Below, piece after piece: positions 6,361 through 24,066 of a DNA stretch of 24,106 nucleotides. Position 1 is the first letter of the stretch, and the number at the start of each line of letters is the position of its first letter. This DNA comes from a virus. Taxonomy: Duplodnaviria; Caudoviricetes. The notes beneath the pieces were generated by a model. That model did no database searches. It was given only the letters and a program-made list of their open reading frames with translations, and was not told the origin of the DNA. A program made the position numbers and the translations under genes. The stretch is from IMG/VR virus record IMGVR_UViG_3300006851_000025, positions 1-24,106 of that record; one strand, written 5' to 3'.

Positions 6361-7452
6361 ATGAATCAAAAACAATTATTAGAGTTAATTGGCGCAATGA
6401 AGCACCAAATATTAGACTTACTGATCAATCAGAACATGGCAGATGATCAAGCGGCGCAACAAACACTAAGTGTGATTAATGAGATGTTCAATAGGATGAA
6501 CCTGGATGTAGAAGGTGTAATCCCACAGGAAACACTTACGGCTTATTTTGGCGGTGTAGATGAAGCAACCAAAGCACTCGATAAGGCAGGTATTGATCCG
6601 AAGGGTGGACTTGCTGCAAGCATATCCAGTAGTGGGAAGGTGGCATCAGCATTTAATAATCATGTGCATATGGAAGCTATTGCCGAAATAACGGATAACA
6701 CTATGCTGGACATGAAAGCTGCAATCAGAACAGCGAAAAACAATACTAATGCAAGTATTGAAACAGCGCTGTCTGCGGTTAAAAGTGATTTGCAGAGTGG
6801 TGTTATTCAAGGTAAGGCTAGGAAGGTTACTACTCAAAGGGTGGCTGAAAGCTTTGCTAAGGAAGGTGTGACAAGCTTCACAACTGTAGATGGCAAGAGG
6901 TTGCCCTTGGACTTTTACAGCCAGGTAGTTACAAGGACTAATCTTAAAACGGCTCATACCAAAGGGGCGGGTGAAAGATACCGCGAAAATGGAATGGACT
7001 TATTCAAAGTAACTGGCAATACACCCACATGCCATCAATGCGCTCCATTAAGAGGCATTGTGTTCACGTTAAACCCGGATAGAACAGATTACACATACAT
7101 GGATCCGGTGGACATCGTGCGCCACCCGAATTGCAATTGTTCTATGTCTGTTTGGGTGGAGGAATATAAAACAGATGCTGAGATCAATAAGGCTCAGAAA
7201 GAATCTAAAGCATTTAATCCCGATAAAGACACCCGTTCCAAGAGTCAAAAAGAATCCTATAAAAAACAGCAGGACTTGCATCGCAAGAACAATGAAACTA
7301 AAAAGCAGTTTGCCAGATACCGCTCTGTATTAGATGAAAAAGACATGCCGAAAACTTTAGGCGGGTTCAAGCGCTCCAAGAAGTCCGGCAGTGATAATTT
7401 CAAGGAAATACAGCGGAAGTATCGAAGAGAAATGAATAAGATAAGGGGATGA
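6361..7452 (+). CDS. Minor head protein (MuF/SPP1 gp7-like)
   Basis: After portal; DGKRLPLDFY..VVTRT, CHQC, HPNCNC motifs. Confidence 0.85.
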   Translation: MNQKQLLELIGAMKHQILDLLINQNMADDQAAQQTLSVINEMFNRMNLDVEGVIPQETLTAYFGGVDEATKALDKAGIDPKGGLAASISSSGKVASAFNNHVHMEAIAEITDNTMLDMKAAIRTAKNNTNASIETALSAVKSDLQSGVIQGKARKVTTQRVAESFAKEGVTSFTTVDGKRLPLDFYSQVVTRTNLKTAHTKGAGERYRENGMDLFKVTGNTPTCHQCAPLRGIVFTLNPDRTDYTYMDPVDIVRHPNCNCSMSVWVEEYKTDAEINKAQKESKAFNPDKDTRSKSQKESYKKQQDLHRKNNETKKQFARYRSVLDEKDMPKTLGGFKRSKKSGSDNFKEIQRKYRREMNKIRG

Positions 7453-8552: not shown

Positions 8553-9896
8553 TTGAATAATAACACAAAAGTAAAACGCCGAAAAGGAAGAACTCACGAG
8601 GAGTTTGTTTCTATTGTAAAGAAACGTTACGGTGACGAGTATAGGATATTAAGCAGGTATACAACGAAAAGAAATAAAGTGCGTGTTCTCCATAGGGAGT
8701 GCGACAATGAATATGAGACTGTAGCCGGCAACCTAACAAGAGAAGGGCGTGGCAAGTGTCCGCATTGCAAATCGGCATGGAATAAATGGAGTCACGAAAG
8801 ATTCGAAACAGAATTGATAAAGAGGCGAGAAACGGAATATTCCTTGTTAAGCAAGTATAAAACAGCCAACCAAGACGTGAAAATCAAGCACAACAAATGC
8901 GGTTATATTTGGTGGGTTAAGGCTAAAAACATTTTAAGTGTGTCTGGTTGCCCCGAATGCGGTCACGCGCAAGCAATGGAGAAACAGGCGCTTACCCCTG
9001 AAAGTTATAAGTCAAGAATTAATGATAGATATAAGGGTGAATACACCTTATTGTCTAAGTATCGGAGAATGTCGCATCACGTTCAAATAAAGCATAATGA
9101 GTGCGGACATATATTCTCTAAAAGCGCGGCAGATGTGTTAGCTGGCTGTATGTGTCCTGTGTGCAAGGAAAAAGAGACGATGACGGCAGATAGATACAGA
9201 AAAACAGTACACGAATTGACCAATGGTGACTATTCCGTATTAGGTGAATATGTAAACACTAAAACCAAGATCGGAATTAAACATAACAAATGTGGTTATT
9301 ATTGGGAAATGGCTCCAGGAGGTTTCTTGTCGGGTAATAGATGCCCTAGATGTGCAGGAAACTTCAAATTGAACACAAAGGAATTTGCAGAACGCGTTGA
9401 TAGTTTAACTAACAATGAGTATGAATTGATCGGCGAATATGTTAAATCTATTGAAAAAGTCCAAATGAAACACAAAAAATGCGGTACTCTTTTTGAGATA
9501 ACCCCAAACCAGTTTACAAACGGAGGTCGCTGTCCAAGTTGCAGCAGAAGTTTAGGCGAATTAAAAGTGGAGTCGTTTCTCAAAATTAACAAAATAGACT
9601 TCCAACCGCAATACAGGTTCAATGATTGCCGTAATAAAAAGCCGTTACCGTTTGACTTTGCTCTTTTTGAAGAAGAAGAATTGCTGTGTCTTGTTGAATA
9701 TCATGGTAAACAACACTATGAACCCATTGATTATTTTGGGGGAGAAAAAGAATACCGTAAGAGAGTTAAGCTTGACGGTATAAAAGAAAAGTATTGTGAA
9801 CAGAATAAGATCCCCTTAATTGTTATTCCGTACTATGAGGAAGGCACAGAGAACTACTTAAAAAAAGAATTAAACAAACTGAAAACACTCGTTTAG
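8553..9896 (+). CDS. Zinc-ribbon repeat protein with C-terminal Vsr/PD-(D/E)XK-like nuclease (homing-endonuclease-like)
   Basis: Five HxxC...CPxC repeats, then SLGE..V..FL, PFDF, VEYHGKQHY, D..K...C....IPLIVIPY; TTG start with RBS AGGAG. Confidence 0.8.
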   Translation: MNNNTKVKRRKGRTHEEFVSIVKKRYGDEYRILSRYTTKRNKVRVLHRECDNEYETVAGNLTREGRGKCPHCKSAWNKWSHERFETELIKRRETEYSLLSKYKTANQDVKIKHNKCGYIWWVKAKNILSVSGCPECGHAQAMEKQALTPESYKSRINDRYKGEYTLLSKYRRMSHHVQIKHNECGHIFSKSAADVLAGCMCPVCKEKETMTADRYRKTVHELTNGDYSVLGEYVNTKTKIGIKHNKCGYYWEMAPGGFLSGNRCPRCAGNFKLNTKEFAERVDSLTNNEYELIGEYVKSIEKVQMKHKKCGTLFEITPNQFTNGGRCPSCSRSLGELKVESFLKINKIDFQPQYRFNDCRNKKPLPFDFALFEEEELLCLVEYHGKQHYEPIDYFGGEKEYRKRVKLDGIKEKYCEQNKIPLIVIPYYEEGTENYLKKELNKLKTLV

Positions 9897-14575: not shown

Positions 14576-14887
14576 ATGGCTAAATCAGATAAAGACGTTT
14601 TATACACCGAAGTTTACGGCGCAAAAGTTGGATTACCACAATACTACGATGAAAATGATGATCCGGTAGCAATATCAACTAATACACCGATGCCGGTGGC
14701 ATTAAGCGGAGTGGATAGCATTAAAGGAGAGCCTGGACCCGCCGGGGAAGACGGCAAGGATGGCGAGCCGGGTCCTCAGGGAGAACCTGGTCCAGCAGGC
14801 AAGGACGGATCTGACGGCAAAGACGCCGAACCACAATTTACAGAAGATGAAGTAGCGGCACTAAAAGAATTAATCAATGAAGAGTAG
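14576..14887 (+). CDS. Collagen-like protein
   Basis: 11 consecutive Gly-X-Y triplets (14726-14824); RBS AGGAGG. Confidence 0.85.
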   Translation: MAKSDKDVLYTEVYGAKVGLPQYYDENDDPVAISTNTPMPVALSGVDSIKGEPGPAGEDGKDGEPGPQGEPGPAGKDGSDGKDAEPQFTEDEVAALKELINEE

Positions 14888-19979: not shown

Positions 19980-20843
19980 ATGAAAGTAACATTTACAAAT
20001 GCAAGAGGACAAGAAGCTGTTTTGACTTCAAAAGCCCCCTTCCTTCTGTCGTCTTTTGATGGATATGGGGATGTGGAGGCTGATACACAAATGCAATCAT
20101 CACCGTATTCAGATGGGTCAATGTACATCGACTCCATCTTGGAGGAACGTCCATTAAGTATGACGTTCGCAATACTTGCTGATAATTCGCGAGATTTATC
20201 AAATAAAAAACGATATATCAGCAGTGTATTTAATCCGAAGAATGGACTTGGTTTATTGAAACATGAAAGAGCTGGGGTTGTTCATGAAATTGAAGCAGTT
20301 GCGGAAGGTGTTCCGCAATTTCCATCCGGTACGGAGAACAGGGGGCAGACTTATCAGCGGGTGACAGTTGATTTGATCGCCCCTGACCCTTACTGGCGAG
20401 ATCCCAACCAAGTATCCCGCCCCCTACAATCATACGTGGGCAATTTCACATTACCAACGACATTCCCGTTTGAATTGGGAGTAGCGGGATCAAGAACCAC
20501 TTTATTCAACGAAGGCGATGTTCCTGCGCCAGTAAGCATCGACATACATGGACCAACTACAAATCCACAGATTATCAATCGCACAACAGGTGATTATATA
20601 CGGATTAATCGTTCGATAGCCGATGATGAGATACTGCATATAAATACCGCATCTGGGCAGCAACGTGTGGAGATATACAGGGATAATGAGATCGAGCCAG
20701 GGTTCGGGTATTTAGACCACAACGGAGTGCTTACAGAATTTGCGTTAGAGATCGGAGAAAACGAAATCGAGCATATCGCTGATGCAGGTGATCGTAATGC
20801 TATTGTGGCTGTGAGTTGGCAAGCACGGTATACAGGGATTTAA
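19980..20843 (+). CDS. Distal tail protein (Dit)
   Basis: Follows tape measure; FTNARG, VFNPKNGLG.L, APDPYW, N.GDVPAPV, L.IGENEI. Confidence 0.9.
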   Translation: MKVTFTNARGQEAVLTSKAPFLLSSFDGYGDVEADTQMQSSPYSDGSMYIDSILEERPLSMTFAILADNSRDLSNKKRYISSVFNPKNGLGLLKHERAGVVHEIEAVAEGVPQFPSGTENRGQTYQRVTVDLIAPDPYWRDPNQVSRPLQSYVGNFTLPTTFPFELGVAGSRTTLFNEGDVPAPVSIDIHGPTTNPQIINRTTGDYIRINRSIADDEILHINTASGQQRVEIYRDNEIEPGFGYLDHNGVLTEFALEIGENEIEHIADAGDRNAIVAVSWQARYTGI

Positions 20844-20914: not shown

Positions 20915-21424
20915 ATGTCAGATATGTGGTTCCATTATAAAATGAGATTAAGATTTAATAAGTACGCTTCAAGAACGGCTTATGAAAGGCTTAAAAATGC
21001 TATCAGAGAAAATGCAGACCTTGAAATTTATGCCTCAACAGGAGAGTTGCTTTTGTGGGTATTAACCACAGACGAGTGGCATAAGATACACGGTGCTTCT
21101 GATTATGAACAAAAAAGGGATCGTAATACCAACGGGATTATAATGAGTGGATTAAGACACGCTTATAATATGATGAAGCACAATATGGGTTTTATACAAA
21201 TTCATCAAAAAGAAGGCGGCTTAAGAACTCCTTTCACCTTACCCATGACTTTGACAGAAGTAAAGGTTATTTGGATGCCGGCTGGAGAAGTATTAAATGG
21301 TAAGCATCCTAATCAAAAAAATAATTATATTAACCATATTGAGGGTGAAGAAGTCCTGGAAACCTTTACTAGGGTATTAACTTTTCTAAATCAAGAAAGC
21401 CGAAAGTATCTAATTGAAGACTAA
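20915..21424 (+). CDS. Hypothetical moron protein, possible HEPN-like helical domain
   Basis: RBS GGAGG; GLRHAYNMMKH motif. Confidence 0.7.
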   Translation: MSDMWFHYKMRLRFNKYASRTAYERLKNAIRENADLEIYASTGELLLWVLTTDEWHKIHGASDYEQKRDRNTNGIIMSGLRHAYNMMKHNMGFIQIHQKEGGLRTPFTLPMTLTEVKVIWMPAGEVLNGKHPNQKNNYINHIEGEEVLETFTRVLTFLNQESRKYLIED

Positions 21425-21433
21425 GGAGAGGCT

Positions 21434-21643
21434 GTGTTGATGAGAAAGGATGAAATAAAGGAATTCGCCAATAAACTTCGGTCTTTAGAAAGTCAATTCC
21501 AGGTTGAGGTTATATCTGACAACTATTTCACGCGTGCAGTTATAGTAGATGTGCAAGAAAGAAGAGGTTTTTCTTATCACTATAAACACGGGAATGTTGA
21601 ATTGGATACGAACACCTACCTGGTCGGCGAAGACGAAAAATAA
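21434..21643 (+). CDS. Hypothetical protein
   Basis: RBS AAGGAG; start could be 21434, 21437 or 21440. Confidence 0.6.
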   Translation: MLMRKDEIKEFANKLRSLESQFQVEVISDNYFTRAVIVDVQERRGFSYHYKHGNVELDTNTYLVGEDEK

Positions 21644-21855: not shown

Positions 21856-22479
21856 ATGTCAGACGAATGGAAATATAGAGATTTACCGAGGGCGAATGGG
21901 CAAGTTGCCCCTGCAAAGTGGGACGCAGATATAAAGGAATGGGTGCCTTATACTACGAAAGATAAAATAGAGGTGACCAACTTACCTGACAATCAGGACG
22001 TTTCTGATAGTGCTGTTAAAGCAGAGTTAGAATCAATTAAGAGTACGCAGGCAGAAATATTAAAGCGGTTGGATAAGCCTATAAGTACTCAAGTAACTGG
22101 GAGTGTAGTTGAAAAGATAACGGATGTCGATGGTCATATAGGGACGCGTTGGCAATATATAGGAGAAGGAAATTCAACTAATATAAATCAAGTACCATTG
22201 AATGTAAGCGAGTATAGGAATCAATCAATATTAATATCTAATAACACGGATAACAACTTAGGAAACGTTGCTATTTATTCCGGGATATCTTCTAACGGTG
22301 GCACGTTCTTCAATCCATCAGTTACAATGGACGACATCCCATCCGGGACAGAAGTGTATCTAGATGATTTGAAAAATAAATTAGAAAAAGAAATATACAC
22401 ACATGTTGTGTTGAGGATAAAGTTTTCAGAAAAGCCAGAGGACGGAAAAGTAGATGTAACTTTTTTGGGGAGGAAATAA
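21856..22479 (+). CDS. Putative virion appendage protein: N-terminal anchor, coiled coil, TQVTGS junction, beta-rich C-terminal domain
   Basis: RBS GGAGG; modular composition; located in the tail region. Confidence 0.65.
   Translation: MSDEWKYRDLPRANGQVAPAKWDADIKEWVPYTTKDKIEVTNLPDNQDVSDSAVKAELESIKSTQAEILKRLDKPISTQVTGSVVEKITDVDGHIGTRWQYIGEGNSTNINQVPLNVSEYRNQSILISNNTDNNLGNVAIYSGISSNGGTFFNPSVTMDDIPSGTEVYLDDLKNKLEKEIYTHVVLRIKFSEKPEDGKVDVTFLGRK
22086..22099 (+). repeat. Left copy of imperfect direct repeat, TACTCAAGTAACTG
   Basis: 12/14 identical to 22689-22702. Confidence 0.6.
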
Positions 22480-22480
22480 A

Positions 22481-22699
22481 GTGACGGAAAAAGACCTATA
22501 CAGAGTTCTTTCGGAAGTTATAAGAGATAATTATATTGTATTAACTGACACTATGGTTGTTAAGGTAAACGCGTTTCATGAGAGATTCAAAAACGCCGAT
22601 TCAGTGAATTACGATGATTTAATGAGAATAGAAAAAGATAAAAAGTACGGCTATGAAAAATATTTAAAACAATGGAAAGAACAAGGCATACTCAGCTAA
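22481..22699 (+). CDS. Hypothetical protein (partner of the upstream gene)
   Basis: RBS GGAGG, GTG start; stop lies inside the right repeat. Confidence 0.65.
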   Translation: MTEKDLYRVLSEVIRDNYIVLTDTMVVKVNAFHERFKNADSVNYDDLMRIEKDKKYGYEKYLKQWKEQGILS

Positions 22700-22702
22700 C
22701 TG
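22689..22702 (+). repeat. Right copy of imperfect direct repeat, TACTCAGCTAACTG
   Basis: 12/14 identical to 22086-22099; both followed by TAGTwGAA. Confidence 0.6.
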
Positions 22703-22769
22703 TTATCTTTAGTAGAATATAAAATAATTTAAATTAATCGTCACATTCGAGGTGTTACCCTACCCCTTC

Positions 22770-23094: not shown

Positions 23095-24066
23095 ATGGCA
23101 GAGAAATCCTATTTTTATGATAGTACAGCAAGTGATGAACGAATATACCAGGCGGCAGACTTTGCGCGATTTCACGCTCAAATCATCGGTAACGGTGTAT
23201 CTAACACAACTACCATGCCTGACTTAGAGGTGTCGGCTAAAAACAATATGGAAGTATCGTTAGGTGCTGGGTACATGTTCGCTAATGGTTATATGTACGA
23301 AAATTCATCCACGATGACACTAAAACACGATATCGCAGATAGCAGTAATGACCGTATTGACCGTATTGTTATACGTTTTGACAGCGACCCTGCACAACGA
23401 AAAAACTATGCTGTAATCAAGAAGGGAACACCGGCAAAGAATCCTGCACCACCTTCTATTACACGGAGTAATTATGTGCATGAAATGAGTGTAGCACAAG
23501 TAAGAATCATCGCGGGTAAATCACATATTGAACAGTCGGAAATTACGGATGAGCGTGCTAATGATGATGTGTGTGGGTATATACCGTTGCATAATATTTA
23601 TCGTGGGTTGAGCATTAATGAATTAGGTATGATAACGATGCCGAATCAGTCTTTTATTAAAACCCAAAATGATGATATGCAAAAGTTTGGAATGGATGAA
23701 TCTTTAAGTTCTGCAACCCCAATTAAGTTTGGTAAAGTAATTGAGGATAAGCAAAAGGAAGTTAGTAGTAATACTCAATTTATAGCAAAAGCAGATGGAG
23801 TTTATAACTATTGGGTGGAGATTGCATTTGACAACGGCGTTATGCCAGCAAATTCCGAACTGCATATATACGCCTTTGTTGACGGCAAAGAAAGCTTTCC
23901 ATTAGGCACAAAGCTATTCAGTGATCCAAGGGATAACTTCATGGTAGTAAATGGCTTTGACAGCCTTAGTAAAGGAGATAAGATAGATTTTAGAGTTACA
24001 TCTTATCAGTTAAATGAGGAAGTCGGGACAAGGTTCACACGGGTTCGTGTAGCTAAATTGGCATAA
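23095..24066 (+). CDS. Baseplate/receptor-binding protein with C1q/TNF-like C-terminal domain
   Basis: Y.DS...DER.Y.A.DFA, RIDRIVIR, ITDER....CG N-module; FIAKADGVY and LSKGDKI in the C-domain. Confidence 0.8.
   Translation: MAEKSYFYDSTASDERIYQAADFARFHAQIIGNGVSNTTTMPDLEVSAKNNMEVSLGAGYMFANGYMYENSSTMTLKHDIADSSNDRIDRIVIRFDSDPAQRKNYAVIKKGTPAKNPAPPSITRSNYVHEMSVAQVRIIAGKSHIEQSEITDERANDDVCGYIPLHNIYRGLSINELGMITMPNQSFIKTQNDDMQKFGMDESLSSATPIKFGKVIEDKQKEVSSNTQFIAKADGVYNYWVEIAFDNGVMPANSELHIYAFVDGKESFPLGTKLFSDPRDNFMVVNGFDSLSKGDKIDFRVTSYQLNEEVGTRFTRVRVAKLA

Follow-up and report, generated by a model that had tools for sequence, protein, structure and literature searches.

A domain and its partner gene appear to be exchanged as one unit between two palindromic sites in phages of Bacillus-type bacteria

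In shufflons and tail-fibre invertons (R64 Rci/sfx, Mu Gin/gix, P1 Cin, p15B Min), the recombination site is itself read as a linker, by which a constant N-terminus is joined to variable C-termini, and where the inverton belongs to a phage, the gene for a cognate chaperone is carried along with the variable end. Polymorphic toxins (CdiA VENN, Rhs, phage MuF) combine a constant N-terminus, a junction motif, a variable C-domain and a cognate small gene. The boundary sequences of lambdoid phages, which are short conserved junctions, provide another case for comparison, and in the laboratory there is recombinase-mediated cassette exchange, engineered with heterospecific lox or FRT sites. By what means phages swap domains with precision and in frame has long been asked, and the usual answer is illegitimate recombination plus selection. 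As for integrons, the relevant part of PMC8138268 describes an IntI-specific insertion in the catalytic domain of the integrase, and the relevant part of PMC9024848 calls integrons extremely rare in Firmicutes. The relevant part of PMC3184786 contains nothing on sites of the type described below, and the literature searched gave no description of such sites, arrays or cassettes.

The locus considered here lies in a window of 24,106 bp, the whole of one virus record and a fragment of a virus, that carries a siphophage morphogenesis module. An initial annotation held that the C-terminal part of one gene and the whole of the next form a single unit, inserted or exchanged at two short repeats. I propose that 22086-22719 is a cassette of this kind (Table 1), in which a start-less jelly-roll domain and a small partner gene are set between two palindromic sites. 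It falls between the gene for the distal tail protein and a virion structural gene. The named relatives that have the element are genomes of Virgibacillus and Halalkalibacterium, and so the host of the window phage is probably one of the Bacillaceae.

Table 1. Features of the cassette and its surroundings, in coordinates of the window.
Feature	Position	Strand	Description
Dit, distal tail protein	19980..20843	+	Pfam Sipho_tail and SPP1_Dit, PHROG 33; upstream of accessory block
Carrier gene, 207 aa	21856..22479	+	ORF; constant N-terminal part fused in frame, via the left site, to exchangeable C-terminal domain
Constant N-terminal part, aa 1-77	21856..22085	+	Outside the cassette; gives start codon and predicted helix
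Left site	22086..22116	+	Arm TACTCAAGTAAC, spacer TGGGAG(T), degenerate second arm; in-frame reading TQVTGSVVE
Exchangeable C-terminal domain	22100..22479	+	Predicted jelly-roll beta-sandwich; without its own start codon
Partner gene, 72 aa	22481..22699	+	Travels with the domain; predicted to bind it
Right site	22689..22719	+	Arm TACTCAGCTAAC, spacer TGTTATC, second arm TTTAGTAGAATA; overlaps the partner's stop codon
Virion structural gene, downstream context	23095..24066	+	PHROG 1220 and 5339 (head/virion structural) and 20556 (baseplate), on aa 1-164

The repeats are as the annotation had them: two 14-mers (22086-99 and 22689-702), identical at 12 of 14 positions and 603 bp apart. The left one encodes TQVTGS within the carrier gene, and the right one holds the TAA of the partner gene and reads TQLTVIFSRI* in the frame of the carrier. 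Taken from the window by itself, this is weak evidence. Direct pairs with 12 of 14 matches, 50-1000 bp apart, number 140 in the window and 76-98 in ten shuffles, and so the match could be chance. That 603 is a multiple of three had been remarked upon, and it proves incidental, the 33 known left-right distances falling 12/12/9 into the three frames. The TAGTwGAA that follows the two repeats after 6 and 7 nt is there, not as a separate motif but as the second arm of a palindrome. The enclosed DNA is indeed rich in AT (34% GC, against 41% in the N-terminal part and 40% in the window), but the small genes nearby are similar, three of four being at 34-35% GC and the fourth at 38%. At 25 of 30 loci the cassette is AT-richer than the 120 bp that precede it. 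The helix predicted at residues 52-71 of the carrier appears only in a low-confidence model (single-sequence fold, pLDDT 32).

At the left junction, homologs answer the check that the annotation had set: similarity stops at TQ(L/V)TGS, the C-domains beyond are unrelated, and there is no conservation through the junction. Residues 1-83 are common to the carrier homologs. All four non-self homologs of aa 1-84 have the N-terminal part in common and turn to unrelated sequence right after TQVTGS, and a contig from a public run is 96% like the window over 21895-22104 and diverges from 22104. The suggestion that the site is conserved at synonymous positions also holds. Seven loci were found by means other than the left-site DNA pattern (the window, four by protein and two by right-site pattern), and in all seven Gly-Ser is written GGG AGT. 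The usage of these codons in the window is 0.115 and 0.214, which argues that the conservation lies in the DNA. Cultured phages gave no tblastn match to aa 1-83 and only chance matches at the level of DNA.

A few observations concern the same linker. In P0002, P0006 and L129 (1241-1651), TQ(L/V)TGS leads into a short tail of 35-45 aa that ends in a GxxW motif; these short-tailed carriers are possibly the ancestral state. The left site of L129 is an almost perfect palindrome, and no right site lies within 1.5 kb of it. A CRISPR spacer (L057, 338-369) matches the left site and its flanks, in the frame MPTQVTGSNV, so that a host targets the sole stretch common to all alleles.

It is the right junction that disposes of chance. 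Protein searches and the left-site pattern together gave a pool of 74 distinct loci, apart from duplicates, a false match (L003) and loci that came from right-site or palindrome patterns. An automatic rule blind to the right site called 34 of the 74 as carriers, and the 30 with the necessary 715 bp or more downstream were searched for the 12-bp arm, with up to 2 mismatches, 450-700 bp further on. The second site was present in 26 of 30 in-frame carriers and in 1 of 34 non-carriers (Fisher p = 1e-12, over a pool in which many metagenome loci have common contig-name prefixes and are not independent samples). Upstream controls for the arm gave 0 of 21 and 1 of 39. A downstream site thus recurs in relatives, as had been predicted, and this rules out the chance repeat that the window alone allowed. 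The lone non-carrier with a second site is L055, described below. Among the four misses are L007, where the site lies at +1637, and three chance matches in long unrelated ORFs.

The reverse test, starting from the right-site pattern, returned four loci: L009 and L012, both new, with an in-frame left site 624 and 628 bp upstream of the right site, L002 once more, and one chance match. The right site covers the partner's stop codon, follows it directly or lies as much as 16 nt further on; it is kept in any frame and outside coding sequence. In five whole virus records the arm is restricted to the ends of cassettes. L003 and L011 were rejected as false matches; matches in Bacteroidota are chance and served as negative controls.

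What lies between the sites moves between loci. L049 and L079 are 98.8% identical from L-1 to R+15 (counted from the left and right sites), and their carrier genes and downstream DNA are unrelated; the pair bears out the claim that C-terminal domain and partner gene travel as one unit. Four other loci (L043, L054, L076 and L083) have different cassettes, with N-terminal DNA in common (90-97%) to about L+27 and downstream DNA in common (88-97%) from R+0. Other contigs, from two public runs, merge with the window sequence or part from it at the two sites. The 35 loci examined fall into 20 domain clusters, where the window's domain has one clear relative (L083), and partner clusters largely follow domain clusters, as in one pair of clusters made up of the same six members. 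L055 is a whole cassette, its domain broken, between a left and a right site, and it sits in a bacterial intergenic stretch with no carrier gene. The unit, its ends and the replacement of alleles are all shown across relatives, and, judged by sequence, phages of Bacillus-type bacteria have exchanged a domain-partner unit exactly at the two sites.

The annotation spoke of insertion or exchange. Replacement between two sites stands; insertion into an empty site finds no support. Neither an empty site nor a tandem domain cassette was seen, and no locus among those searched held two exact left-site matches. Empty-site alleles were sought through shorter homologs, and both proteins so found carry other tails instead. 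Joints expected of a circle, an empty site or an inversion were absent from two runs (X1 and X2) as assembled into contigs, which drop rare forms. One joint in X2 (22109-22689) has unknown letters in between and fits another allele. The cassette of L007 (3559-5196), 1.6 kb long and in a baseplate region, consists of a domain, a gene for a 275-aa protein of metallo-beta-lactamase fold (with a weak ComEC-like match) and a small gene.

Other parts of the window have their own variable or repeated genes. Two small genes after the distal tail gene (20915-21643), not bounded by sites, have close homologs in the same position in the L025 prophage. Over about 185 aa the structural gene downstream of the cassette is nearly the same as a gene of L001 (4755-5789), and beyond that point the C-terminal parts differ; no site lies at this junction, which points to a second variable domain and another route. 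A 447-aa ORF (8553-9896) with four 189-204-bp repeats of CxxC motifs sits between the minor head and scaffold genes and resembles a zinc-ribbon endonuclease. A collagen-repeat gene (14576-14887) follows the major tail gene, and its N-terminus (PQYYDE...PV) is, by eye, like the N-termini of several carriers.

The site is a palindrome of about 31 bp: a 12-bp arm (TACTCAACTAAC), a spacer of 6-8 nt and a 12-bp reverse arm. The reverse arm is nearly perfect in L025, L030 and L129 and degenerate in the right sites of phages, which keep 5-11 of the 12 positions. Left and right sites are alike over 14 bp, as far as TG. On the left the spacer reads TGGGAG(T), and on the right TGTTGTC in 15 of 33 cases, most of the others being related variants. 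Right spacer and second arm go with the flanking DNA downstream (7 of 13) rather than with the cassette (1 of 15; p = 0.011). Identity is continuous over about 27 bp at the left site and 19 bp at the right. An attC-type hairpin was rejected because the window's sites barely fold as single strands (-0.7 to -2.4 kcal/mol), and a search of RNA families gave no Rfam match near threshold. The spacing from TAA to TTA is by consensus 8-10 here; dif-like sites, which host XerC and XerD bind, have an 11-6-11 layout.

Sites also occur in other arrangements. In the second and third sites of L006 (5811 and 6107) the spacer is CTCCCCA, which is the left spacer in reverse complement; beyond them come a small, divergent ORF that looks like a regulator and a recombinase gene (6427-7278). 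Inversion there would truncate the carrier, and an on/off switch is possible. Chromosomal pairs of a left-type and a right-type site, about 100 bp apart, in either order and with no gene between, are found in L058 (1039-1170), L133 (1400-1530) and L030 (5000-5130). Lone left-type sites are found in L023 (5000) and L131 (1501), and such sites follow chromosomal stop codons (L131). L023 and L030 lie near genes that are presumably DarTG-like.

If the sites recombine, one may ask for the enzyme. A co-occurring recombinase, which the annotation had said to look for, is absent from the 24-kb window, itself a fragment, and present in one virus record and near host arrays. In L006 the third site is followed by a 280-aa Xer-like recombinase; here too is a second small cassette in tandem, the sole phage case with two units. 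In phage G400 the family member lies 320 bp from a third site. The family was found in one of five virus records searched and in 15 of 81 Virgibacillus-family genomes (E 1e-60). RecT was not found in the five virus records, and ERF-family annealing proteins are in two of the five, both of them free of the recombinase.

Bacillaceae chromosomes have arrays of like sites near the Xer-like recombinase. Of 21 regions around genes of the family, 13 contain sites recognised by a matrix for which only phage right sites served as training, at up to 14 per 20 kb (14 in L102, 7 more in adjoining L142 and 10 in L115), against 0 in three xerD regions and about 0.3 per shuffle; the remaining 8 regions have no such site. 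In G001, co-oriented small genes are set apart from one another by sites along a stretch that exceeds 30 kb. When the chromosomal matches are themselves made into a second matrix, both sites of the window rank among the three best positions in its 24 kb, a partly circular result since this matrix was seeded by the phage matrix. Spacers in the chromosomal arrays are mixed, and those of the phages are not among the 40 commonest of 115. The chromosomal regions L092-L126 gave no tblastn match to phage domains or partners.

The best sign that the enzyme acts on such sites, albeit an indirect one, appears to be the recombinase gene itself: one subclade (support 100/100) is a site-to-site unit of about 1.05 kb that has unrelated flanks in several genomes. 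As for the ordinary genes of the arrays, what matched in other genomes spanned one inter-site unit at a time, and 3 of 8 homolog contexts had no site whatever, so that site-to-site movement is clear only for the recombinase unit and L055. The family branches apart from XerC/XerD, and the L006 enzyme, on weak support (82/78), comes out at the base of the family. The distance from GKG to HxxRH is 68 aa in the enzymes of L006 and L092 and 73 aa in two XerD, and TIGR02249 gives 125 bits, below its cut-off of 265. Two elements are inserted in array sites of L102 (G001 C42; 7212-9176 and 11893-13515). By their protein sequences one looks like a group II intron and the other like an IS110 element; copies of the intron in other genomes begin at the same point.

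Carriers and partners have no Pfam or PHROG match, save one partner that matches a PHROG of unknown function, and the variable C-domain has no match in Pfam, PHROG or NCBIfam and none to a toxin family. The domain in the window is modelled as a beta-sandwich (AF2, pLDDT 64), for which the best structural matches tie at VIA Z 7-8 (GOLD, XepA, YomS, the BPP-1 cementing protein and CBM32), and Foldseek found nothing in the PDB at E 0.001. The predicted jelly-roll is a common fold and says nothing on function. The partner is predicted to bind the domain. Their complex scores 0.75, against 0.01 for the best of three controls, a mark that 116 of 157 solved pairs attain, as do 2 of 215 mismatched ones; these figures are rough with the present alignments. 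The runs agree in at least 89% of contacts, with partner pLDDT of at least 89. A cognate pair would explain why domain and partner travel together, and the likely role of the partner is that of a chaperone in assembly or of an antidote to the domain it travels with. The carrier gene comes after the distal tail gene in the window, L001, L006 and L012, and elsewhere lies among tail or lysis genes (L007, L009, L016 and L025). From gene position, the carrier protein is probably virion-associated.

I propose that the exchange of cassettes is the work of a host tyrosine recombinase, Xer-like and acting in trans. The enzyme would pair left site with left and right with right, between two DNA molecules, where the donor might be a prophage, a co-infecting phage or a chromosomal orphan copy. 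The unlike spacers of left and right sites would block left-right excision, and cassettes would be replaced, neither lost nor stacked. Since the left site doubles as the coding linker TQ(L/V)TGS, each incoming domain would come to lie in frame, and a probably virion-associated protein would gain a new head and its predicted binding partner together. Exchange of this sort, left with left and right with right at unlike spacers, fits the observation of replacement with no empty sites or stacked domains. For exchange at the sites with such an enzyme as its likely agent, I see the case as evenly poised, and this as the most likely of the routes considered. Against the recombinase step are the family's presence in one of five virus records and only 15 of 81 genomes, and the 8 of 21 regions around it that are siteless. 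Right spacers vary (TGTTGTC in no more than 15 of 33), which strict spacer homology would not allow. The absence of the phage spacers from the 40 commonest chromosomal ones, and the degenerate second arm of phage right sites, count against it too. Moreover, of the 7 mismatches between L049 and L079, 4 lie in a stretch of 25 bp that would belong to the cassette if the crossover were in the spacer (p = 8e-5, from one pair).

Those mismatches cluster at both ends of the cassette, and they are better fitted by crossovers at the inner edges of short homologies. The sites might then be boundary sequences derived from host arrays, with swaps made by homologous or single-strand-annealing recombination at two stretches of 19-30 bp and no site-specific enzyme at all. 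The runs of continuous identity, about 27 bp left and 19 bp right with the second arm decayed, accord with this, as do the ERF proteins in the two recombinase-free records and the lack of any empty site or tandem domain cassette among the loci seen. It is much to ask of short homology alone, however, that it account for a 14-bp core common to left and right, for palindromes, for the orphan L055 and for lone left-type sites such as L131. Nor does it sit well with G400, where the recombinase is present and neither RecT nor ERF was found. I consider short homology by itself, the main rival, a possible though rather doubtful explanation; recombinase exchange and short-homology recombination could also work together.

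Another route resembles that of integrons: a circle is excised by left-right recombination, with a single strand exchanged at AAC-TG, and reintegrates at an empty site. This would make sense of the 14 bp that left and right share up to TG and of a spacer that goes with the downstream DNA. It draws also on the second small cassette in tandem in L006, on L055, which resembles a simple insertion, and on chromosomal arrays with mixed spacers. Yet there is no empty site among the two short homologs or in contigs, no locus among those examined has two exact left-site matches, the window's sites hardly fold (-2.4 and -1.4 kcal/mol), and the recombinase does not have the IntI insertion. An excised circle is for these reasons improbable. 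It is very improbable that the sites are operators, RNA signals or chance, and the change of domain at TQVTGS ordinary mosaicism: pairs matching at 12 of 14 are common in the window, and the short-tailed P0002, P0006 and L129 (this last with no right site in 1.5 kb) suggest that TQ(L/V)TGS can be a plain linker, but homology between loci starts or stops at the sites, and their enrichment has p = 1e-12.

How, then, does exchange at the two sites compare with what is known? With regard to diversity-generating retroelements (DGRs), no long repeat pair lies near the gene in this fragmentary record, and the alleles are whole unrelated domains. The jelly-roll recalls PBSX XepA and SPbeta YomS, which the relevant part of PMC6834076 describes as small jelly-roll domains from the late regions of Bacillus prophages. 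The likeness has an Atlas feature lead of 0.89 and VIA Z of 7.8 for XepA (rmsd 6.6, 113 aligned) and 7.1 for YomS (rmsd 2.4, 84 aligned), scores that tie with those of unrelated beta-sandwiches and go with no match to a sequence family. The same part of PMC6834076 places XepA in maturation and not in mature particles, so that the likeness says nothing for a location in the virion.

Like toxin/immunity modules, the locus has a short junction motif, a variable C-domain and a small downstream gene whose product is predicted to bind it. Unlike them, it has a jelly-roll with no toxin family match, a second, palindromic copy of the junction on the 3' side and no orphan array beside the carrier gene. 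As in shufflons and invertons, what would be the crossover site is translated as a linker between constant and variable parts. Here, though, the sites are direct, alternative C-termini are not stored beside the gene, alleles come from other genomes, and four of five virus records are without the recombinase family.

With integrons the phage locus has in common that promoterless units are delimited by repeated sites of a recombination type. The resemblance is closer in the hosts, whose chromosomes do hold co-oriented arrays of small-gene cassettes with repeated sites and a tyrosine recombinase, and with a group II intron and an IS110-like element lodged at sites. The differences are that these sites are simple palindromes of about 31 bp and not folding attC hairpins with R and L boxes, that the recombinase is without the IntI-specific insertion (68 aa, against 73 in XerD), and that the phage cassette is half a gene, fused in frame.

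Altogether the locus works as a mixture of integron cassette, shufflon linker and toxin-immunity module, and belongs neither to the integrons nor to the shufflons. There is a likeness, too, to the engineered system of cassette exchange, in which, as here, the unit to be exchanged stands between sites whose arms agree and whose spacers do not; the literature searched yielded no natural case. What is described would be a new way for a phage to change, in one step, a probable virion protein and its predicted binding partner. Its exchange points are defined DNA sites, common to about 30 loci and tied to host arrays in a group poor in integrons, and they mark a pool of some 20 uncharacterised domain-partner pairs. 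The old question of precise domain swapping becomes, in this instance, one that can be put to one small enzyme and two 31-bp sites. If recombinase exchange is true, then the system is categorically new, a natural counterpart of engineered cassette exchange and possibly a tool for Gram-positive genetics. My fullest version of the model is tentative, and I lean somewhat against it as a whole: Bacillaceae phages would have borrowed the sites of host gene arrays, with unlike spacers at the two ends and one site in frame, and a host Xer-like recombinase would swap a receptor-binding or decoration domain of the virion, along with its cognate chaperone, in a single step from a pool of at least 20 domain families, a natural recombinase-mediated cassette exchange.
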